DNA of 64,000 nt from Candidatus Falkowbacteria bacterium. Its GTDB lineage: Bacteria; Patescibacteriota; Patescibacteriia; UBA11705; JABHMO01. The translations under genes and the position numbers were made by a program. The stretch spans positions 25,708-89,707 of the forward strand of contig JABHAL010000010.1 of the NCBI GenBank assembly GCA_018674305.1. Reading direction: 5' to 3'. Below, piece after piece: positions 5,900 to 29,817 of this stretch; the first letter of the stretch is position 1, and each line of letters opens with the position of its first letter. The notes beneath the pieces were generated by a model that was not told where the DNA came from, did not search any database, and worked only from the letters and a program-made list of their open reading frames with translations.

Positions 5900-5995
5900 A
5901 TTTTAAGTATTCCCACAACCTGAAACTGGGGGAAATGTATTTTGTAGTTGTTACATGTTACATGATTTATGATACATGATTTCCACTTATTTTTC

Positions 5996-6026
5996 AACAA
6001 AAAAATCCTTACTTTGAGTAAGGACT
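5996..6026 (-). terminator. Rho-independent terminator for the 6032-6649 gene
   Basis: Stem tccttac/gtaagga (6006-6024) followed by a U-run on the minus strand (A-run 5997-6005 on plus). Confidence 0.6.
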
Positions 6027-6031
6027 GTGTA

Positions 6032-6649
6032 TTATTTCTCTAAATTACTTAAATCAGTTTTTAATCGCAGAATTTCTGCGCTCATTGCATCACGTAGCTT
6101 TTCAATTACCTTGAGAATGGTTTGATAAACCATATCTTCATCTTGATTACACTTTTTCCTAGCAATCGCCTTGTTCTTCACAGAAGCTGCTTTTATGTGA
6201 ACCATACCGTAAAAAACATCACAGTATTGCACAAAAAATGTCATATCGTTGAGTGCATTTTTCAGAACGGCTTTCTTTTCCTCAACTGATAACTCCTTCT
6301 TACAGACTGGTGCCCAGTCAATATCTGGATACAAGGCCTCCACTGCCCGTTCATTAACTTTGGTTGCCTGTTCAAAATATCGATACAATAAAGTCATCCC
6401 AGCGTTAATCTCGTCATTGGAAGGACTTCTGTTTATACCGATCAGTAACGGATTTTCTTTTGTCGGCTTTTTGATCTGAGCCTGTGCTTCTGGTACAGCT
6501 ACAAACAAAACTGAAATTGCCAAAAACATAAACGCCAGTATTACCAACACAAAGTAGAAAAACGAGAATGAAACTGGCGAGTAATCAACATCCATGGCTC
6601 GGGCAACTCGCGAACTGCGTCGCATTTCAAAACGCTTGTAGTAACTCAT
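6032..6649 (-). CDS. Hypothetical membrane-anchored protein
   Basis: 205 aa with an N-terminal hydrophobic segment (FYFVLVILAFMFLAISVLFVAV). No recognisable family. Confidence 0.55.
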   Translation of the reverse strand: MSYYKRFEMRRSSRVARAMDVDYSPVSFSFFYFVLVILAFMFLAISVLFVAVPEAQAQIKKPTKENPLLIGINRSPSNDEINAGMTLLYRYFEQATKVNERAVEALYPDIDWAPVCKKELSVEEKKAVLKNALNDMTFFVQYCDVFYGMVHIKAASVKNKAIARKKCNQDEDMVYQTILKVIEKLRDAMSAEILRLKTDLSNLEK

Positions 6650-20521: not shown

Positions 20522-23278
20522 CTAAATTTCCTTGCCCTTCTCAACTCGAAGAGTATTTCCAACTTCAAGGATAACTTTATCGCGTCGACCAACTTCGCCA
20601 GCTAAAATCTTTTTAGCCAATGAATCATCAATCTTTTCTTGAATTGCTCTACGCAGTGGTCGCGCGCCAAACTTCGGATCAAAACCTGCTTCAGCCAATT
20701 CAGCAATAGCTGCTTCAGTAGCAGTAAATTCAATGCCCTTTTCTTTTAATCTTTTAGTTATTTTATTCACCATCAACTTAGCAATCTGAATAACATCCAT
20801 CATTGATAGCGGTTTAAACACAACAACACCATCAAACCGATTTAGAAACTCTGGTCGATAATGTTCTTTTAATTTTTCATTGATTAAGACTTCTTTAATC
20901 TCTTCAACCGATGTGCCTTTATTTATTTCATCCTGAATATATTGAGCCCCTGCATTAGAGGTCATTATTATAATTGTATTAGTAAAGTCAATTGTACGCC
21001 CCTGAGCATCAGTCAATCTTCCATCATCCAAAACTTGCAAAAACAAATTTAAAACATCTGGATGTGCTTTTTCAACTTCATCAAACAAAAGTAAGGCAAA
21101 CGGATTTTTGCGAACTGCCTCAGTTAAAATACCAGTGTTAGAACCAGAACCTATTAAACGATCAATACTGGACCGCTCCTGATACTCAGACATGTCAGTA
21201 CGAATCATAGCATTTTCATTACTAAAATAAACCTCGGCAACGGTTTTGGCTAACTCGGTTTTACCCACACCAGTTGGACCAAGAAACAACATACTGGCAA
21301 TTGGGCGCTTTCCTTCCCGAAGCTCAGCTCTCGCGCGCCGCAAACTGGTAGCGACAATATTTACCGCCTCTACCTGATCGATCATGCGTTCATGAATTCT
21401 ATCCTCCAGATTTAATAATTTTTCACTTTCTTTTTGAGTAACTTGGGTTAATGGAATGCTGGTTAAATTTGAAATAACCGCTGCTACATCCTCACCACCC
21501 ACAACCTTATTTTCCCCTCGTTCTTTTTTTACCTTTATAGCAGACTGTTCTAGTATTTCAATTGCCTTTTCAGGTAAATAACGATCATGAATGTACCTAG
21601 AAGATAAAATTGCAGCTTTCTCAATCGCAGAATAGGAAAAATAAACATGGTTCTGATATTCCATTGGTCCACTTTTGGCTTCCAAAACTTGAATAGCATC
21701 ATTAAGTTCAAGTTCTTCAACTTTTACCGTCTGAAAGGCTGAATCCAAGCTCTTGTTTTCAACTGCTCCAAGATAACCATCTCCAGTAGTAGTGGCTACT
21801 ACATGAAACAAATGCTTAGAAAGTAATTGAGCGAATACTTCAGACAAATCTAAACTCTGTTCACCGCCAGCTGTAATGCCATGTAAATTATGCAAATTCT
21901 CCACTGCTAAAACGATATTTCTGGCTCTCATTGCCTCATTGATAATCAACATCAAGCGCTGTTCCGCTGCAGCCGCATCAGCACCAGCCAGTAAACTTGA
22001 AATATTTAAACTAACTAAACGTTTATCTTGCAAAATTTCGGGTACATCCTCAGCTACCATTTTTTGGGCCAATCCTTGCAAAATTGTAGTTCGCCCAACA
22101 CCTTGATTTCCAACCAACAATACGCCTTGTCGACTACCCTCAATAATACGAAACATTTGCTCAAACTCTTTTTCACGACCAATACAAGGGAAAAACTGTC
22201 CGTATTTAGCCTGTAAAGTTAAATCTTCACTAAATCTATCTAACATTGGTGTAGCGATCGCAGTCATGGCCCTATCCATACCTGACTTAGGTTTATAACG
22301 AGCTTTGCCTTGATATCTTTGCCAATTTTTTCTTAACTGATCCTGAATACGAACCCAGGCTACTACATTCTTCACTTGTTGATAATTCAATCCAAAATCA
22401 ATTAACAATTCTTCGACATCATCCTTTTCCACCTCGGTTTTTTCTGGTGAAGCTAAAGCCAACACAATTTCCGCTAAATCAACTTTTGGCCAATGTCCTT
22501 CATACGCTTCTAAATAAGCAACAATAAGCAAACGATGCATTTCCTCAGACAAAATCGGATTACCCGGTCTTGCAATAATATGTTTAGATAAATATCTACT
22601 TATTTTCTTTTTTAATTTATCAAATGAAACTCCCAATCGTCCCAAAATAATCGCCGACTTGTTGAACTGGAACAAAACACCCAATAAATGAACGCGCAAT
22701 ATTTCATGATGTTCAAAGTGCCCAGCCAATTCCCAACTCGCCTGAAGAGCTTTCTTGGATTCAACTGTAAAAGACTTGGAAATATCAACCAACTTACTCT
22801 TTTTTAATTTCCAGACTTCTTGCCAATCCAAAGAAGGATTAGGAAATTCACTCTTTTTATGAAAATGTTTAGCTAACACATTATATTTAGCTGAACTTTC
22901 CTGATCTAATCGATAATATAAATATAGATCTACTAATAAAGTCAACCAAAAATACATTTTTTCAAAACTTGGAGTTGACCAATATTTCAAAGTAAAAAAT
23001 GAACTAAAGTTATCAAGATAACCAATATAAGCCATAACTATAAATCCAGAAATACCAAAAAGCGCTAATACAGCATTAATAATCAAACGTACTTTGCGAA
23101 TTCCTTTTTCGTAAGCATTATTTACAGGATCATAAAACTGTCCCCAATATAAAACTTTGTCTTCAAGAAAATAGACTACGCCAAGCCCACGACAGGTATT
23201 ACATAACAGCCCATCAGTATATCCGGCTCCATCGCACTCTTGGCAAACTAAAAAATTGTTATCTAATTTCTCACTCAT
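20522..23278 (-). CDS. ClpC/ClpB-family AAA+ ATPase with N-terminal zinc ribbon and transmembrane segments
   Basis: 918 aa. N-terminal CQECDGAGYTDGLLCNTCRGLG (a 4-Cys motif) and hydrophobic helices (LIINAVLALFGISGFIVMAYIGYL), followed by Clp-N-like repeats, AAA-1 (GNQGVGRTTILQGLAQ) and AAA-2 (LGPTGVGKTELAKTVAE). Confidence 0.85.
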   Translation of the reverse strand: MSEKLDNNFLVCQECDGAGYTDGLLCNTCRGLGVVYFLEDKVLYWGQFYDPVNNAYEKGIRKVRLIINAVLALFGISGFIVMAYIGYLDNFSSFFTLKYWSTPSFEKMYFWLTLLVDLYLYYRLDQESSAKYNVLAKHFHKKSEFPNPSLDWQEVWKLKKSKLVDISKSFTVESKKALQASWELAGHFEHHEILRVHLLGVLFQFNKSAIILGRLGVSFDKLKKKISRYLSKHIIARPGNPILSEEMHRLLIVAYLEAYEGHWPKVDLAEIVLALASPEKTEVEKDDVEELLIDFGLNYQQVKNVVAWVRIQDQLRKNWQRYQGKARYKPKSGMDRAMTAIATPMLDRFSEDLTLQAKYGQFFPCIGREKEFEQMFRIIEGSRQGVLLVGNQGVGRTTILQGLAQKMVAEDVPEILQDKRLVSLNISSLLAGADAAAAEQRLMLIINEAMRARNIVLAVENLHNLHGITAGGEQSLDLSEVFAQLLSKHLFHVVATTTGDGYLGAVENKSLDSAFQTVKVEELELNDAIQVLEAKSGPMEYQNHVYFSYSAIEKAAILSSRYIHDRYLPEKAIEILEQSAIKVKKERGENKVVGGEDVAAVISNLTSIPLTQVTQKESEKLLNLEDRIHERMIDQVEAVNIVATSLRRARAELREGKRPIASMLFLGPTGVGKTELAKTVAEVYFSNENAMIRTDMSEYQERSSIDRLIGSGSNTGILTEAVRKNPFALLLFDEVEKAHPDVLNLFLQVLDDGRLTDAQGRTIDFTNTIIIMTSNAGAQYIQDEINKGTSVEEIKEVLINEKLKEHYRPEFLNRFDGVVVFKPLSMMDVIQIAKLMVNKITKRLKEKGIEFTATEAAIAELAEAGFDPKFGARPLRRAIQEKIDDSLAKKILAGEVGRRDKVILEVGNTLRVEKGKEI

Positions 23279-23691
23279 ATAAGTTTTCCAAACACATTAA
23301 GGTTGTACAAAATCATGATAACTAAAAAAATTGGCAAGACCAGCCAAAATATAAAAATAATTAAACTAAATATTAACCAGAATATTAGAGCAAAAGTTCT
23401 AAATATTATATTGAACAAACGCATGAAAAAACTAATGATTCTGCTCTGCCAATCATGTTGCCCAAACATAGGCACGAAAATATTTTTCAGCCAAAGTGTT
23501 ACACCTAATTCAGAGTTACCCTGAGAAATAAAACCCGTCATGCGTTTAAAGGCCTTAATCAGGCCAGCTGAATACCACCAGATAGGCCAATACAAAAAAT
23601 CTAAAACTATATCCTTTACAATAAATTTAAAAGATTTGAGTAAAATGTTTTCCTTCACCATACTTTTTATTTTTGATCTTTGTTTACTCAA
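23275..23691 (-). CDS. Hypothetical small membrane protein, translationally coupled to the ClpC-like gene
   Basis: 138 aa. Its stop overlaps the ClpC start (ATGA), and the C-terminus is poly-hydrophobic. Confidence 0.55.
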   Translation of the reverse strand: MSKQRSKIKSMVKENILLKSFKFIVKDIVLDFLYWPIWWYSAGLIKAFKRMTGFISQGNSELGVTLWLKNIFVPMFGQHDWQSRIISFFMRLFNIIFRTFALIFWLIFSLIIFIFWLVLPIFLVIMILYNLNVFGKLI

Positions 23692-23920
23692 ATATTATAC
23701 CATAAACTGCAATTAACACACAATAAGTAATGCACACACCCTCATATAAACTATTACTAAAGCTCAATCATCCCACCCTCCCTCCCCACTGGAGGCGCCT
23801 GCGGCGGGCCTGGTTCGTCGTCACTATGTTGTTCCTCCTCACCTTTTTCTTCACAGTAATCTAAAGTCTTGTGATCTTGTACACATTGGCCATTAGGCCA
23901 ACAGATCTGTATATCATGTA

Positions 23921-23959
23921 ACAAAAAAAGAGGACTAATTCGCATTGCGAATTAGTCCC
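23921..23959 (-). terminator. Strong rho-independent terminator on the minus strand
   Basis: Perfect 12-bp stem ggactaattcgc/gcgaattagtcc with a 3-nt loop, followed on the minus strand by a 7-U run (plus A-run 23923-23929). Confidence 0.75.
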
Positions 23960-25233
23960 TTTACCATCGTTGAACATTGACTTGTGGGCCAACATCCTCG
24001 TACATTAAAGTTTGATTTTACCATTACAGTTTGTCTTTGAGACACGGTTTGTTCATTTGTGAAGTGCTAGTTTTGAAGCTTGGCTTAACCAATTCTTGAT
24101 TTTTGTTTTGTTCTGACCGAGGTCAGTTTCCAACTATTACAAGTTTGGCGACTTACCGTCCCGAAGGATGGCTAAAGATAGTTTATCACTCTATGATTGC
24201 TCATTGAGTTTCCGCTATCAAGTCTTACTTTTGCTTTTTCTTCTAGTTCTTCTGAACATTCCTTGTGTTCTGTTGTCTTGTCAACACTAGGCTGACATCG
24301 CGTGAAGGTTAATTGTCTGACCGAAGTCAGTGAGGAACATTTCGCTAGCCGAAGCTTTTGATTTGTTCTTACTTTTAACTTTCCAGAATACTTTGCTCTT
24401 TGGACATTAGCTGTTTCGTTTACTTGCTGGATTTTTGTTTTCTTCCTTTCGGAGGATCACTTTGTCCACTGGGGTAAACTACTAGTTCGTTTTCTCTGTC
24501 GTTCTGTAGTCTTGCTAAAGCAGTTTTACCAAGGAGTTTTTCGTTTTTACACAAAATACTTCTTGATTTTTTTGCTTTGATGCAAGTTGCTTGCGTTGAA
24601 GATTGGCTCTTGATCTAGTCTTGGCTAGCTTTTTTCTTCTGTTACCGAAGTAACGTCAGAATCCGGTTAACTTTGATTTTGATCCGTCATAGCTTATCTT
24701 CTGCATGCCCACTGATCGATTTTGATTGCGAATTAGCGACGTTTAACTTACTTGCCTCGAAAGGTTTTCTGTCTTTGTCTACTGCTAATTTACTGTTTAG
24801 CTCCATTTATAATAGTAGTCGTTGGTTTTTCCGAAGAAAATCCTGACTGCTAAATAGAGGCCAAATCTGTCATTGCCTTTTCTGAGTGGGTTGGTTACCA
24901 CTACAGTAAAAGCTCGAGATCTGTGGTGCATGTTAGTGTCAAGGCGCTTTTCACGGCTGTGCCCTTAAGTCAGTTGTCCAAGTTAATTTGGAGTATTGCT
25001 ACTCTTTGGTTAACTTTTTCTCCTGTCTCAGGACTCCACCTCAGAACTTGCATTCTTTGGTTTCCCTTGTCTTTACTTGCTCAATTACTTGTAATGAACT
25101 TTGTTGATGGTAATTCACATTATACTCGTATATCAAAACCTGTCAAGTGCCTAACTGTGGATAACTTTTAACTCTATTTTTTGTTTAATTTTAGAGGAAA
25201 ACTTTACCCCATTGACAAAATTATATATTATTG
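23960..25233 (-). ncRNA. Candidate large (~1.3 kb) structured ncRNA on the minus strand
   Basis: Only one short track ORF (24923-25171). The plus strand is T/G-rich and A-poor, so the minus-strand RNA is A/C-rich. At least five ccgaag sites on plus correspond to C(UUCG)G on minus, each flanked by complementary stems (for example gttac-CGAA-gtaac at 24640 and ctgac-CGAA-gtcag at 24318). It ends at the 23921-23959 terminator. Confidence 0.45.
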
Positions 25234-25240
25234 TTAATCT

Positions 25241-25270
25241 TTTATATCTGCTATAAATTTATAATAGCAA
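25241..25270 (-). promoter_or_regulatory. Possible promoter on the minus strand (TTGCTA-18-TATAAA) for the large ncRNA candidate
   Basis: Reverse complement of 25241-25270: ttgcta, an 18-nt spacer, then tataaa. Moderate match to consensus. Confidence 0.3.
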
Positions 25271-25304
25271 GTGTTTATTAACAATTGACCACTAGAAGGA
25301 GGGA

Positions 25305-25997
25305 ATGATGGAAGCTACGCTAATTGGTGTTTTTGTTTTAAGTGTACTTATCTTCTTGTATTGGACATGGACACTTATGTTTGTACGGAACATAGACACT
25401 GAAGCCTTTATGGCCCAGATTCAAAAACTGATCATGGCCAACAACCTTGACCGAGCAATTAAACTTTGTAATGCTGCCCCAAATGCAGTCATGACTCAGC
25501 TGACTAAAAGCGTTTTGATTTGCGCTAATCAACCACACAGATTATATCTAGCCTATCTACAGACGACTTTCAAGCTGAATCACGAGGCGAAAAACCTAAA
25601 AAAATCTCCAACCCGAATCACAATTATTATTCTCATTTATGGGCTACTAGTAATGGGTTTCGTTGTGCAACCTCTAGGCTGGACGTTGGGTGCGGTTCTA
25701 GGCATCATTGCTTTTGTTTTGCTATCGCTGACCTCTGCGTTCATTTCCGCTCGTCTTGTCAAAACCAAAAAGGACAAGTTATACCTATTCAGGCTGATGG
25801 ACCTCTTGCAATATCGAATGGCTAATTACAACACGGATGAATCCAACGAAGGCCTAACTTTTATGCAAGCCAGGCCACTAACTGAAGACGAACTAGCCAG
25901 GCGCATGTCAACTGGGGCGCCTCCCCCGAAGGTTAGACCTTCGCCAGTGGACGAACTCAAATCAAAATTGCAATCCGAACTATTACCCAAGCTTTAG
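25305..25997 (+). CDS. Hypothetical membrane protein (paralog A of a tandem pair)
   Basis: 230 aa with ribosome-binding site GAAGGAGGG. Topology is TM1, a soluble segment containing NNLDRAIKLCNAAP, a TM2-TM3 hairpin, then a C-terminal tail. GC is elevated (~45-48%). Confidence 0.65.
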   Translation: MMEATLIGVFVLSVLIFLYWTWTLMFVRNIDTEAFMAQIQKLIMANNLDRAIKLCNAAPNAVMTQLTKSVLICANQPHRLYLAYLQTTFKLNHEAKNLKKSPTRITIIILIYGLLVMGFVVQPLGWTLGAVLGIIAFVLLSLTSAFISARLVKTKKDKLYLFRLMDLLQYRMANYNTDESNEGLTFMQARPLTEDELARRMSTGAPPPKVRPSPVDELKSKLQSELLPKL

Positions 25998-26009
25998 GGA
26001 GGACGAATA

Positions 26010-26708
26010 ATGCTATTTGTGATTGGTATAATACTCTGTGTATTTGCAGGTTTAACGATCCTTGGTTCCATAATCGAAATAATGAAAGAAAGTATCGCTA
26101 TTACTGCCTTCATGCATCAGGTAAAAAAGCTGGTTCTGAGCAATAATATTGATCGAGCAATTAAGTTGTGTAACTGCGCGCCCCATTCAACGTTAGCCGT
26201 TGCAGCTAAAAAGCTGTTAACTAGAGCTAACAAGAACAGTGCGCTGTACCAAACATTTTTACAAGCCAAAATGGAACTTGAGATAGAAAGTTGGTCAAAC
26301 AAGTCTGCTACCAAATGGGCTTTGTGGAACCTAACACTTGCAATTGGATTTTTCACTGCTGGCTCTATGTACAACATGTTATTCGAGGGAGCGCTTTTGT
26401 GCGGTATTGCCTATACCAGTTTCTCACTAGCACAGTTTGTGTCCTCATTCAGACACAAACTGCTTTGCAAAGAGATTCCAGCCCTAGAGGACTTACTCCA
26501 AACACTAATGGAGCGCTTAGGGGTAACTGCCCCTGACTTTGCTCTATTAGATAATCCATCTCAGGAACTGCTAGCTAAACAAGAAAAGCTAATGGAAGCC
26601 TTTGAGCGGAGTTACACCAAAGACAAAGATGCTGGTCGAGAAACTCGACCGGTAGAAGCTGTTTTCCTCGAGAAGATAGATCTACGAACCGGTCTTTTCC
26701 CTGCTTAG
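26010..26708 (+). CDS. Hypothetical membrane protein (paralog B of the tandem pair)
   Basis: 232 aa with ribosome-binding site AGGGAGG. It shares NNIDRAIKLCNCAP and the same topology as 25305-25997. Confidence 0.65.
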   Translation: MLFVIGIILCVFAGLTILGSIIEIMKESIAITAFMHQVKKLVLSNNIDRAIKLCNCAPHSTLAVAAKKLLTRANKNSALYQTFLQAKMELEIESWSNKSATKWALWNLTLAIGFFTAGSMYNMLFEGALLCGIAYTSFSLAQFVSSFRHKLLCKEIPALEDLLQTLMERLGVTAPDFALLDNPSQELLAKQEKLMEAFERSYTKDKDAGRETRPVEAVFLEKIDLRTGLFPA

Positions 26709-27394: not shown

Positions 27395-27908
27395 AGATTT
27401 GTACGGGTGTACGGATTAATTAGGATTTAATTAATATTAACTACTCTTCTAAATTTTACTCCTTCAGGTGAAAACAAGATTAACAAACCAACCTCTAATT
27501 TCAATAGTTTTAAGTATTCATTTATTTGATCAAAGTCTTTTCTAATAAATCTTTTACCCACTTTCAACTCAATCAATATTAAATCAAAAAATAATATATC
27601 CAAACGACTATTACCAATTTTTTCACCTTTATATTTAACTGGCAAATTAATTTGAGAACTTACTGGAATATTTTTACTTTCAGAATCCTTTATTATTGCT
27701 CTTTCATAATATTTTTCTCTGTATCCAGATCCTAATTCATTATAAACATCAAACATTATTCCAATTATAATTTCTGTTTTGTCTTTATGAAGGAGTTCCA
27801 TATATGTCTATTCTATCAAATTTTTCAAGATCCGTACATCCCAACTACCGCGAACAGGCGCACAAATCCGTTAACTGTTTTTGTGAATCCGTACATCCGT
27901 ACAAATCT
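27395..27908. mobile_element. Cassette of about 514 bp bounded by 23-bp terminal inverted repeats and carrying a GxxExxY-family gene
   Basis: The left end 27395-27417, reverse-complemented, reads aatccgtacacccgtacaaatct. The right end 27886-27908 reads aatccgtacatccgtacaaatct, a 22/23 match. Extra TCCGTAC iterons lie at 27830 and 27913. Confidence 0.5.
27427..27801 (-). CDS. GxxExxY protein (PD-(D/E)XK-fold family, TIGR04256-like)
   Basis: 124 aa. ...IIIGIMFDVYNELGSGYREKYYERAI...GNSRLDILFFDLILIELKV fits the GxxExxY family pattern. Confidence 0.7.
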   Translation of the reverse strand: MELLHKDKTEIIIGIMFDVYNELGSGYREKYYERAIIKDSESKNIPVSSQINLPVKYKGEKIGNSRLDILFFDLILIELKVGKRFIRKDFDQINEYLKLLKLEVGLLILFSPEGVKFRRVVNIN

Positions 27909-27972: not shown

Positions 27973-28515
27973 CTATTTATCTTCGATAACACGTACCATT
28001 GCCGGCGGAGTGGCCAGCTGAAGTGGCTGATCGCACAGCATGTACGTCCCGCTCCACTCTAGGTAAACATCATCCGTAGTAAAGAAGAAAACCGCGTCAC
28101 CATTGGTTCCGTACGAACCATCGAGCTGCGGGCTTTCCACAACCTTACCACCAACACGTCTACGTGCAAAAGGATCATCGACAATCTGTTCACCAGTAGT
28201 TAACTTGGAGTTAACACTGGAGACCTTACCCTTGATAGTATGAAAGGCCATCACCTTACCATAGCTAACCAGGTAAATGTAGCTGATCTTGTTCGGATCA
28301 TTGAAACGGTTAAGCCGCTTTGACAGGTTATCTCGCTCCAAAGAACTCTCGATCTTGGGCGGCGGCGTGGCCTTGATCAGACGACCCTGCTGCTCTTCCG
28401 TGAAATTGGCCTCTGCCTTCTGGGTCTCACCCTGGCCCTCGTAGGACTCATCATCACAACCAACAAAGGCAGTGAACGCGAAAACACACGCAATTGCCAG
28501 CATAATTTTCTTCAT
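27973..28515 (-). CDS. Lipoprotein paralog 1 (unknown family)
   Basis: 180 aa with signal and lipobox AFTAFVGC. Conserved core LIKATPPPKIESSLER...ISYIYLVSYGKVMAFHTIKGKV...VESPQLDGSYG...PLQLATPP. Local GC is about 50-55%. Confidence 0.7.
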   Translation of the reverse strand: MKKIMLAIACVFAFTAFVGCDDESYEGQGETQKAEANFTEEQQGRLIKATPPPKIESSLERDNLSKRLNRFNDPNKISYIYLVSYGKVMAFHTIKGKVSSVNSKLTTGEQIVDDPFARRRVGGKVVESPQLDGSYGTNGDAVFFFTTDDVYLEWSGTYMLCDQPLQLATPPAMVRVIEDK

Positions 28516-29102
28516 TTCGACACCTCCTCGTCGCTCGTATCAGTCTTGGGATTATCCTCAATAATGCGAACCATCTCCGGAGGAGTAGACAGCTGAAGTG
28601 GTTGGTCGCTCAGCATGTATGCACCGTTCCACTCCAAGTAAATATCGTCCGTGGTGAAGAAGAAAACCGCATCGCCATTAGTTCCATATGAACCATCGAG
28701 CTGCGGGCTTTCTACTACCTTACCAGACCTGCCCTCATGATGAGCAAAAGGATCCTTCACGATCTGCTCACCAGTAGTCAACTTTGAATTAACACTAGAA
28801 ACCTTTCCCTTGATTGCATGAAAGGCCATGACCTTACCAAAATCGACCAAGTAGATATAACTGATCTTGTTGGGATCATTGAAACGAACAAGACGCTTGG
28901 CCAAATTCTCACGCTCCAAAGAGCTCTCGATCTTGGGCGGTGGGGTGGACTTGATCAGACGACCCTGCTGCGCTTCCGTGATCTTAGCTTCTTCCTTCTG
29001 GGTCTCACCCTGGCCCTCATAAGTTTGCTTTTCCGTCTTGCAGCCAACAAAGGCAAACGCCAGAATCAAGCTAAACAAAACCAACGTCTTTCCAGTCCTC
29101 AT
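28512..29102 (-). CDS. Lipoprotein paralog 2
   Basis: 196 aa with lipobox AFAFVGC and ribosome-binding site GAGGAGG. It is about 70% identical to paralog 1, and its stop overlaps the paralog 1 start (ATGA). Confidence 0.7.
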   Translation of the reverse strand: MRTGKTLVLFSLILAFAFVGCKTEKQTYEGQGETQKEEAKITEAQQGRLIKSTPPPKIESSLERENLAKRLVRFNDPNKISYIYLVDFGKVMAFHAIKGKVSSVNSKLTTGEQIVKDPFAHHEGRSGKVVESPQLDGSYGTNGDAVFFFTTDDIYLEWNGAYMLSDQPLQLSTPPEMVRIIEDNPKTDTSDEEVSK

Positions 29103-29226
29103 CGCAACCTCCTCAAGGTTATTAAGATGAATACACTAACAGATAGTGTAAACATCCTATAATATCACATATGAAATACTTTGTCAATAGCGACTGTAAT
29201 TTTACCACAAAGTCGCCCCTTTGAGA

Positions 29227-29263
29227 TAAAAAAACAGAGCCTGGTTAGAGAACCAAGGCTCTG
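29227..29263 (-). terminator. Rho-independent terminator after lipoprotein 3 (duplicate of the 27924-27961 module)
   Basis: Same hairpin and A-run. About 60 bp including the gene 3' end is duplicated (aaaaaacagagcctggttagagaaccaaggctctgtYgtgttattactaYttgtcttcgat). Confidence 0.7.
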
Positions 29264-29274
29264 TCGTGTTATTA

Positions 29275-29817
29275 CTACTTGTCTTCGATCATCCGGACCA
29301 TGGCCGGTGGCGTAGACAGTTGCAGTGGCTCAGTAAGCCACATGTAATCACCTCGCCACTGGACCAATACTTCTTCTGTAGTCCAGAAGAAGATCGCGTC
29401 TTCACTCGGACCATAGGATCCGTCCAATCCAGGACTTTCCATCGTATGTCGAGTTCGTCCAGCGCCAGTTGATCCATCGCCGACCTCGACAACCTGATCA
29501 CGCGTAGTCAACTTAGACGAACAATAAGTAACCTTGCCCTTCACCGTATGAAAGGCCATCACCTTGCCATAACTGATCAAGTAAATATAAGAGATTCGAT
29601 CTTCACGATTGATCTCCTTGAGATACTTCACCAGATTCTCCCGCTCTAGAGAATTTTTCATCTCCGGCGGAGGAGTCGACTTGAGTAACCGTTCCTGGTT
29701 CCTCTCTGTCATTTCCATCTCATCGATGGTAGTCTGGCCAGTATCCAGCGCCTTACCGCAACTGATCATACCCATAGCCAGAACACAGAGAGTAACAATC
29801 GTCATAAGCTTCTTCAT
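29275..29817 (-). CDS. Lipoprotein paralog 3 (diverged)
   Basis: 180 aa with lipobox GMISCG. It is about 45% identical to paralogs 1 and 2 and conserves the TPPPEM, ISYIYLISYGKVMAFHTVKGKV and PLQLSTPPAMVRMIEDK blocks. Confidence 0.7.
   Translation of the reverse strand: MKKLMTIVTLCVLAMGMISCGKALDTGQTTIDEMEMTERNQERLLKSTPPPEMKNSLERENLVKYLKEINREDRISYIYLISYGKVMAFHTVKGKVTYCSSKLTTRDQVVEVGDGSTGAGRTRHTMESPGLDGSYGPSEDAIFFWTTEEVLVQWRGDYMWLTEPLQLSTPPAMVRMIEDK

Follow-up and report, generated by a model that had tools for sequence, protein, structure and literature searches.

What occupies more than a kilobase of DNA without a protein-coding gene in a bacterium with an otherwise gene-dense chromosome? 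This question is raised by the DNA analyzed here, a window of 64,000 nucleotides from contig JABHAL010000010.1 of a Candidatus Falkowbacteria bacterium (assembly GCA_018674305.1, positions 25,708 to 89,707). The window is a piece of a gene-dense chromosome of the Candidate Phyla Radiation (CPR): The genes around the locus include those for ClpC, DnaB, RecR, a glycosyltransferase, dNK, and UvrD, and the host belongs to a Parcubacteria/Falkowbacteria lineage, with the nearest ClpC relatives in metagenome-assembled genomes of Parcubacteria. A sequence-only reading had proposed that the minus strand of the gene-free stretch encodes a large structured non-coding RNA (ncRNA), possibly of a new class. 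Our analysis supports this proposal: As judged from the sequences, there is a probability of about 85% that the locus is a genuine, stand-alone gene on the minus strand for a structured ncRNA of an undescribed family. This view is based on the boundaries of the unit and the substitution pattern as compared to a sister taxon, on a family of units at the same syntenic site, on covariation in the predicted helices, and on the lack of any match in Rfam 15.

Does the stretch encode a protein, or did it once do so? Between the flanking genes (23692-25304), there is no open reading frame (ORF) of at least 100 amino acids. The earlier statement that a single short ORF is present has to be corrected, since there are about a dozen of them with 31 to 82 amino acids, the longest being encoded on the plus strand; in the RNA region, each frame contains 23 to 33 stop codons. 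The sister taxon (L011/L012), whose ClpC protein is 96% identical to that of the window, has the same order of dNK, a gene-free gap of 1.48 kb, the small membrane protein, and clpC. Its gap can be aligned to the minus strand of the window with about 92% identity over 1276 nt. The homology begins some 80 nt before the predicted transcription start and continues to the U-run of the terminator; outside these limits the sequences are unrelated or rearranged. The two RNAs differ by substitutions at 87 of 1184 aligned positions (7.3%), with a uniform density along the molecule (3-12% per 100 nt) and a distribution of 27/34/26 over the positions modulo 3, i. e. without codon periodicity. The insertions and deletions of 1, 1, 2, 2, 1, and 3 nt break every frame. 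For comparison, 30% and 26% of the third codon positions differ in clpC and dNK, respectively. Moreover, among 15 ORFs with 25 or more amino acids, 12 contain a stop codon or a frameshift or have lost their start codon in L011, and the six-frame translations of the region with masked stops gave no Pfam match (E <= 1). This pattern of divergence indicates that the unit is non-coding and under purifying selection. Taken together, the slow and even divergence, the lack of periodicity, the frame-breaking indels, the missing Pfam match and the lost ORFs speak against both a protein-coding gene and a decaying pseudogene to an extent that we regard the two as excluded for all practical purposes. The latter explanation had been kept as an alternative in the sequence-only reading, and a gene-sized region in a gene-dense genome that is absent from some relatives would indeed fit the remnant of a gene. 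However, the third codon positions of the neighbouring genes change about four times faster than the region, which is the opposite of what decay would produce, and promoter, terminator and covarying helices are kept across lineages in which the bodies of the units cannot be aligned. We therefore give a decayed gene practically no weight.

Where does the unit begin and end? Transcription is predicted to start at 25111-25116, behind a promoter that matches the sigma-70 consensus at all 12 positions and that is listed with the other features in the table below. Both hexamers are identical in L011, and since the homology with L011 starts about 80 nt upstream of the transcription start, both are located inside the conserved block. 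The promoter proposed earlier (TTGCTA-18-TATAAA, 25270-25241) exists as a sequence but fails the criteria of the promoter scan and lies outside the block conserved in L011; its position was off by about 125 nt. With the promoter at its new place, the unit has a length of about 1190 nt (25112 to 23921) rather than the 1.3 kb, or about 1350 nt, assumed before. The 3' end is predicted in the U-run at 23923-23929. The intrinsic terminator and its U7 run had been recognized correctly, while the stem consists of 13 rather than 12 base pairs, one of which has undergone a compensatory A-U to C-G change in L011 (23953/23937). Each member of the family introduced below has a GC-rich terminator hairpin of different sequence that is followed by a U-run, and a TTGAC -35 region with a -10-like hexamer is found at the same position in L014, L116, L117, L118, L120, L121, and L004. 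Upstream of the TTGAC -35 region, an element of the TTATCCACA type is present in every family member but L005, which has the -35 region alone; in L120, it takes the form of the variant TTGTCCACA.

In the window, this element is a perfect DnaA box. This raises the possibility that the locus acts at the level of DNA, either as a DnaA-box region resembling a replication origin or as the remnant of a mobile element, and the lack of genes and the adjoining insertion of two MotA-like genes would be in line with this idea. Yet, there is only a single DnaA box, and it is part of a promoter motif: The composite AGTTATCCACAGTT-N5-CTTGAC (25141-25164 on the minus strand of the window) occurs in at least 100 stretches of CPR metagenome contigs (L016-L115), where it precedes diverse genes encoding e. 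g. small proteins, helix-turn-helix regulators, or a Mur ligase. Among the 100 metagenome matches listed, none had the RNA behind the motif. Due to its wide distribution before unrelated genes, the motif seems to be a promoter-proximal element used by CPR bacteria in general rather than one that is specific for the RNA; no paper on it was found. Moreover, the GC skew does not change its sign at the region, there are no flanking repeats and no genes for a transposase, an integrase, or a reverse transcriptase, the tetraloop hairpins described below are restricted to one strand (six versus none), unlike DNA palindromes, and the syntenic position of the unit is retained in lineages whose ClpC identity is as low as 64%. 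A DNA-level element has thus, in our opinion, a negligible probability. Several of the AGTTATCCACAGTT-N5-CTTGAC promoters contain a LexA-type palindrome (GAAC-N4-GTTC) between the -35 and -10 regions.

The hairpins that had drawn attention to the locus proved to be exceptional. The hexamer CCGAAG is present on the plus strand at 24161, 24321, 24349, 24645, and 24831, i. e. 1 to 5 nt from the positions originally given, and these are five of the 12 copies that the plus strand of the 64 kb contains. On the RNA strand, the five CUUCGG copies compare to a mean of 0.11 and a maximum of two in 5000 dinucleotide shuffles, which bears out the earlier estimate of less than one expected copy, and all five are flanked by complementary arms of 3 to 5 bp. 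A sixth UUCG hairpin has the sequence CCU-UUCG-AGG, and the CUGAC-CUCG-GUCAG hairpin, which had also been noticed before, provides a seventh tetraloop arm beside the six with UUCG. If a closing stem of at least 3 bp is demanded, the minus strand has six UUCG loops and the plus strand has none, as compared to 0.09 in shuffles; this corresponds to six of the 24 minus-strand UUCG hairpins of this type in the whole window. In addition, the RNA contains six GNRA-looped hairpins. The minimum free energy (MFE) of the region is about 7 standard deviations below that of shuffled sequences (z ~ -7), irrespective of the strand. Among the pairs of the MFE fold of the window, five have experienced double substitutions with respect to L011, and four of these are compensatory, as compared to a mean of 0.7 and a maximum of four for random canonical pairs. 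Compensatory changes affect the arm 24848/24817 and the CCU-UUCG-AGG hairpin (24764/24755 and 24762/24757). The composition of the plus strand (23921-25270: A 22.7%, C 19.2%, G 18.4%, T 39.7%) agrees with the earlier description as T-rich and A-poor but not with its being G-rich. The GC content of 39.3% is slightly enriched as compared to 36.6% in the rest of the window, as had been stated.

To trace the unit in other bacteria, we compared the neighbourhoods of progressively more distant ClpC homologs from 14 lineages. The gene order UvrD, dNK, gap, 128-aa membrane protein, ClpC is conserved, and in 10 of the 14 lineages the gap is filled by a unit that either lacks genes or carries spurious annotations, so that the search for homologous regions that the sequence-only reading had suggested was successful. 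Clearly homologous members are those of the window, L011, L014, L116, L117, and L118 (1055-1298 nt). Probable members are present in L121 (1296 nt), in L120 (800 nt), and in L004 and L005 (about 650-680 nt, GC-rich); these four are tied to the family only by synteny, promoter, end motifs, and the helix P1 described below. In L002, L003, L119, and L122, there is no gap between dNK and clpC. The RNAs of L014 and L116 are 65% identical over 1123 nt, and L118 has several long blocks in common with both. The window and L011 share the promoter and the first ~100 transcribed nucleotides with these lineages; further shared blocks are located around positions 156-190 of the RNA and at the 3' end. The units each have a -10 region and an A-rich 5' motif, which reads AAAAG(U/C)UC(A/U)UU(A/C)CAA in the clearly homologous group and in L121, and CGAAAA(G/U)GUUCG in the short GC-rich forms. 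In nine of the 10 members, the GC content of the RNA exceeds that of the rest of the locus, by 10-18 points in L121, L120, L004, and L005. Structured RNA genes in AT-rich genomes typically have a GC content above that of their surroundings. So far, the family is restricted to some Parcubacteria, namely the Falkowbacteria, the Kuenenbacteria, and their relatives.

In most members, the RNA is encoded on the same strand as, and directly upstream of, the operon of the membrane protein and ClpC. It might therefore be a long 5' leader or a cis-regulatory RNA of this operon, such as a giant attenuator. However, the unit ends in a strong terminator for which no alternative antiterminator is evident, and the operon has its own conserved extended -10 region, TGGTATAAT, past this terminator in every lineage (at about 23701-23709 in the window). 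Moreover, the RNA and the operon are separated by a ddl gene (encoding D-Ala-D-Ala ligase) in L116 and by a 165-nt insert in the window, and the operon is unchanged in the four lineages in which the dNK-clpC site is devoid of the RNA. A leader function is thus very unlikely.

Helices that join the two ends of the RNA argue for a common fold. Positions in the RNA are numbered such that position n corresponds to the window coordinate 25113-n. A MAFFT alignment of all ten members was unreliable outside the terminal blocks, and MAFFT put the window out of register in permuted end constructs; for this reason, P1 and P2 were counted on hand-built constructs. The closing helix P1 is predicted both by the MFE fold and by RNAalifold on the window and L011. 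An equivalent helix is present in all ten members even though the sequences differ: UACCAUC/GAUGGUA in the window is replaced by AGUCGC/GCGACU in L116, by ACAGUCGC/GCGACUGU in L118, by UGCAGUCG/CGACUGCA in L121, and by GCGAUCGA/UCGAUCGC in L120, and the helix is interrupted in L014, L117, L004, and L005. In the hand-built constructs of nine lineages, 88% of the cells pair and eight of eight pairs have changed on both sides. The covariation score is 0.549 as compared to 0.149 in shuffles (reached in none of 500), and slid controls did not exceed 0.15. The 5' strand of P2 lies in the most conserved block of the family, AAAGUUCAUUACAAG, which is kept in the window, L011, L014, L116, L117, L118, and L121. 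The 7-bp core of P2 covaries at two positions (U-A/C-G and A-U/U-A); 88% of its cells are paired, and its score, again from hand-built constructs, is 0.343 versus 0.156 in shuffles (reached in one of 500).

Two further helices, P3 and P4, were independently predicted by RNAalifold on six 5' domains. P3 shows two compensatory changes in L117 and a G-U wobble in L011, and in P4 a G-C pair is replaced by A-U in L117 and L118 and a C-G pair by U-A in L014. For both helices together, 94% of the cells are paired, and compensatory changes affecting both partners are seen in five of nine pairs. The score is 0.43 versus 0.235 in shuffles (0 of 500) and at most 0.17 in slid controls. P5 is tentative, with a single covarying position (L117 versus L014). 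In the 3' hairpin, one U-A pair has changed to C-G and two G-U pairs to A-U with respect to L011, and the relatives have a GAGG...CCUC hairpin in its place, the third pair of which covaries as judged by hand.

Features of the RNA gene. Coordinates refer to the window; all features are on the minus strand, and RNA positions count from the predicted 5' end.
Feature	Coordinates	Strand	RNA positions	Remarks
RNA gene	23921..25112	-		~1190 nt between promoter and terminator; 92.7% identical to L011 throughout
TTATCCACA element	25156..25164	-		perfect DnaA-box consensus; exact match, 9 nt upstream of -35
Putative sigma-70-type promoter TTGACA-16-TATAAT	25119..25146	-		promoter scan, 12/12 match
P1, 5' strand UACCAUC	25106..25112	-	1-7	closing helix
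P1, 3' strand GAUGGUA	23962..23968	-	1145-1151	2 nt before terminator stem
P2, 5' strand	25081..25099	-	14-32	in conserved block AAAGUUCAUUACAAG (25088-25102)
P2, 3' strand UCAAACUUUAAUGUAC	24000..24015	-	1098-1113	between UGGUAAAAUC and GAGG; RNAalifold
P3, 5' strand CAAGG	25065..25069	-	44-48	within conserved AAAGACAAGG
P3, 3' strand CCUUG	24940..24944	-	169-173	
P4, 5' strand GCA	25078..25080	-	33-35	
P4, 3' strand	24928..24930	-	183-185	
Conserved block GCCGUGAAAAGCGCCUUGACACUAACAUGCACCAC	24923..24957	-		alignments; contains 3' strands of P3 and P4 and ACCA
P5 (tentative), 5' strand ACCA	24924..24927	-	186-189	RNAalifold and hand inspection
P5 (tentative), 3' strand UGGU	24020..24023	-	1090-1093	RNAalifold and hand inspection
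Middle domain	24024..24922	-	190-1089	~900 nt, A-rich, many tetraloop-capped arms
UUCG/CUCG hairpins	24827-24840, 24755-24764, 24641-24654, 24347-24356, 24317-24330, 24156-24171, 24113-24126	-		
GNRA hairpins	24444-24453, 24193-24204	-		
Conserved 3' block UGUAAUGGUAAAAUC	24014..24028	-		family consensus UUGGUAAAAU
3' hairpin, stem GGAUGUUGGC/GUCAAUGUUC	23972..23997	-		loop CCACAA; RNAalifold
Intrinsic terminator	23921..23959	-		terminator scan; 13-bp stem 23931-23959, U7 run 23923-23929

A pairing of UUACAAG with CUUG[G]UAA between conserved blocks was dropped from the model, as it competes with the extended P2 preferred by RNAalifold and is weak in the window. The 5' strand GUUC(A/U)UU has a second perfect partner, AAUGAAC (24051-24057, RNA 1056-1062), upstream of the UGGUAAAA block, with AAAGAAC (RNA 1157-1163) as the counterpart in L014. 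Pairing with this partner would cross P5 rather than nest with it, and it could represent an alternative conformer, a pseudoknot, or chance.

The part of the molecule between the conserved ends is under constraint among close relatives, while distant ones differ too much for an alignment. Its divergence from L011 (7.6%) is similar to that of the core, and its length varies from about 350 to about 1000 nt among the members. A module of about 75 nt (GGAGGA...GGAGCAAUCCAAAAGGAAUAUCC.GUGAAAC...UUCGGA.GAAAGAA) is internally duplicated in the middle domain of some members, i. e. in L014 (RNA ~920-995 and 1019-1090, corresponding to L014 ~5974-6144) and also in L118, which shows that the variable domain grows by local duplication. 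The many similar short hairpins with A-rich linkers, two of them nearly identical (CUGAC-YUCG-GUCAG at 24317-24330 and 24113-24126), might also be read in another way: The RNA could be genuine but serve as a precursor or array of small hairpin RNAs, or as a sponge that titrates an RNA-binding protein via the linkers or hairpins. A fast-evolving middle of such different lengths would fit a requirement for the number or composition of elements rather than for an exact shape. On the other hand, the loops are structural tetraloops of the UUCG and GNRA types without a common protein-binding motif, and there is no tandem or otherwise repeated unit: Apart from the hairpins, neither tandem repeats nor direct or inverted repeats of substantial size were detected in the region. 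Moreover, the features that are conserved are the end-clamping helices P1-P5, and this argues for a single global fold. An array or a sponge is thus unlikely.

How might the RNA of the proposed new family be built, and what could it do? The consensus sigma-70 promoter, preceded by TTATCCACA, would start the unit, and the strong intrinsic terminator would end it. The ends of the RNA would be clamped by covarying long-range helices, with P1 joining the first 7 nt to 7 nt just before the terminator and P2 extending this clamp, while P3 and P4 would close the 5' domain and P5 (CCA/UGG) may join the 5' and 3' blocks. In this way, the two ends would form a core of about 290 nt from which a fast-evolving, A-rich middle of about 900 nt with UUCG- and GNRA-capped arms emerges. 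Such a molecule would be strongly transcribed, abundant, stable, and resistant to nucleases, and it would act through its three-dimensional shape. By analogy with other large ornate RNAs, the most likely, though tentative, role is that of a scaffold, either in a ribonucleoprotein or in an assembly made of RNA only; the RNA may also be a ribozyme. A function as mRNA or leader, or in regulation by base pairing, seems less likely.

The comparison with known RNAs argues for a new class. At gathering thresholds, the window and six loci gave no match in Rfam 15, and the region and its relatives gave no meaningful one at E <= 10; the best permissive match in 23600-25400 is a chance 17-bit hit to a snoRNA. 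No Rfam family was found at gathering thresholds anywhere in the 64 kb. In particular, neither the window nor the relatives match OLE, GOLLD, or ROOL (Rfam RF01071, RF01998, and RF03087, respectively), and the scan for large ncRNAs that had been proposed for the locus thus detected none of them; RNase P RNA, tmRNA, signal recognition particle RNA, 6S RNA, and group I and II introns were not matched either. Since no known family is matched, we rate the RNA as a new class, even though there are precedents for large ornate RNAs in bacteria. An exact-word search of open-access papers yielded no account of an RNA of this kind from Patescibacteria. An origin from phages or plasmids was considered and rejected, as there is no blastn match in phage records and the 5' motif is absent from viral contigs.

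The sequence-only reading had pointed to OLE because of the small membrane protein encoded downstream. Indeed, OLE is also a large, highly structured bacterial ncRNA that is encoded beside the gene of a small membrane protein, and it is made as a separate stable RNA, as is predicted for the RNA of the window. However, no match to the OLE covariance model was obtained in the window at the gathering threshold, in 23600-25400 at E <= 10, or in the relatives. The RNA of the window occurs in Parcubacteria, whereas OLE is found in Bacillota (extremophiles and anaerobes), and the primary sequence of its family is far less conserved. It is also twice the size of OLE, which has about 600 nt (PMC12054373). 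The adjoining membrane protein has its own TGGTATAAT promoter, its gene overlaps clpC and is coupled to it, and it persists in all four lineages without the RNA at this site. This undercuts an OLE-like partnership, though the RNA and the protein may still interact; a partnership as with OapA is not indicated.

With GOLLD and ROOL, the RNA shares the very large and ornate architecture, the multi-stem junctions, the tetraloops, and the restriction to certain lineages. GOLLD combines a conserved and a variable part. In contrast to both RNAs, which are often encoded in prophages or next to tRNA genes, the RNA of the window has no tRNA gene in the 64 kb and no match in phages or viral contigs, and its family is chromosomal, syntenic across lineages, and larger (up to 1.3 kb); neither of the two covariance models is matched. 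GOLLD and ROOL form RNA-only multimeric cages (PMC12286853), and by analogy such a cage is a possible model for the RNA described here. The raiA motif RNA, too, is structured, stands alone, has a promoter and a terminator of its own, and is apparently highly expressed, features that are predicted for the RNA of the window. It has about 200 nt, and its sequence is strongly conserved. It has been found in more than 2700 species (PMC12968392), whereas the RNA of the window has a narrow distribution, is long and fast-evolving, and does not match its model. Finally, long-range helices that join the ends and a small conserved core with peripheral helices that vary between lineages are also found in RNase P RNA and rRNA. 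The conserved motifs of these RNAs are absent and there is no Rfam match at E <= 10, so the analogy is one of design only.

Several points weigh against the assignment to a new RNA family. The nhmmer profiles of the full RNA and of the 5' domain detect the clearly homologous group alone and miss L121, L120, L004, and L005, and the middle domain of the window cannot be aligned by nhmmer to those of L014, L116, and L118; conservation of its many hairpins is seen no further than in the sister taxon. With an unalignable middle and a 5' profile that misses L121 and the short forms, the limits of the family are uncertain. Four of the 14 lineages, including the second-closest relative (77% ClpC identity), have no such RNA at the syntenic site, so that it must be dispensable there or have moved. 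The comparison comprises six sequences with clear homology (from five lineages if near-identical copies are set aside) and four probable ones, and with so few sequences the covariation statistics rest on few events. For P1 and P2, the test strands were in addition chosen by hand, which favours pairing. Finally, the promoter and the terminator of the RNA gene are defined by consensus matches only.

To our knowledge, there are very few complex bacterial ncRNAs of more than 500 nt, namely the rRNAs, group II introns, OLE, GOLLD, ROOL, and HEARO. The discovery of each of them has opened new RNA biology, most recently with the RNA-only nanocages. The genomes of Parcubacteria comprise about 1 Mb and leave hardly any DNA unused. 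The presence of a 1.2-kb RNA gene that is under purifying selection and has a consensus promoter in such genomes suggests that the RNA is likely to be important for the episymbiotic life of these bacteria. We think that it probably belongs to the first CPR-specific class of large ornate RNAs. Members of this class would have an end-clamped core of about 290 nt from which a hypervariable domain with many tetraloops, up to about 1 kb in length, extends; they would be expressed from a strong promoter in minimal genomes and would act as a ribozyme, as the scaffold of a ribonucleoprotein, or as a self-assembling particle in a role new to bacteria. The seeds from ten lineages and the P1-P5 core model make the family a testable target, and the size variants of 650-1300 nt define a minimal core that could be used in probing or cryo-EM.

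The genes next to the RNA deserve some remarks. The membrane protein encoded upstream of clpC has 128-138 amino acids with a hydrophobic C-terminal half, and its gene is present in all 14 lineages sampled. In the window, this gene (23275-23691, minus strand) overlaps the start codon of clpC and is translationally coupled to it. The protein matches no Pfam family and might serve ClpC as a membrane adaptor. Between the RNA terminator and the promoter of the membrane protein gene, the window contains a GC-rich insert of about 165 nt (23757-23920) that is not present in L011. Public gene callers place an ORF of 62 amino acids at 23757-23945, with its start inside the terminator hairpin, and in L004 a Cys-rich ORF of 42 amino acids with its own terminator (L004 4339-4467) is found at the equivalent place. 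No genes for tRNAs or tmRNA were found in the 64-kb window with ARAGORN.

On the other side, three tandem paralogous genes (27973-29817, minus strand) encode proteins of 180-196 amino acids with lipoprotein-like N-termini that are 49-78% identical to each other; the one that was tested has no Pfam match. This block and a PDDEXK_3 gene (27427-27801) are absent between UvrD and dNK in the relatives. The genome of the window is the only one with an insertion between dNK and the RNA gene that consists of two paralogous genes (25305-25997 and 26010-26708). Their products are 32% identical to each other and belong to the MotA/TolQ/ExbB family, from which they have diverged strongly. A link between the RNA and these neighbours was rejected, as their homologs are found in unrelated contexts without such an RNA. 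One of the nearest homologs of the first MotA-like gene is located on a phage-looking contig with many small co-oriented genes (L010).

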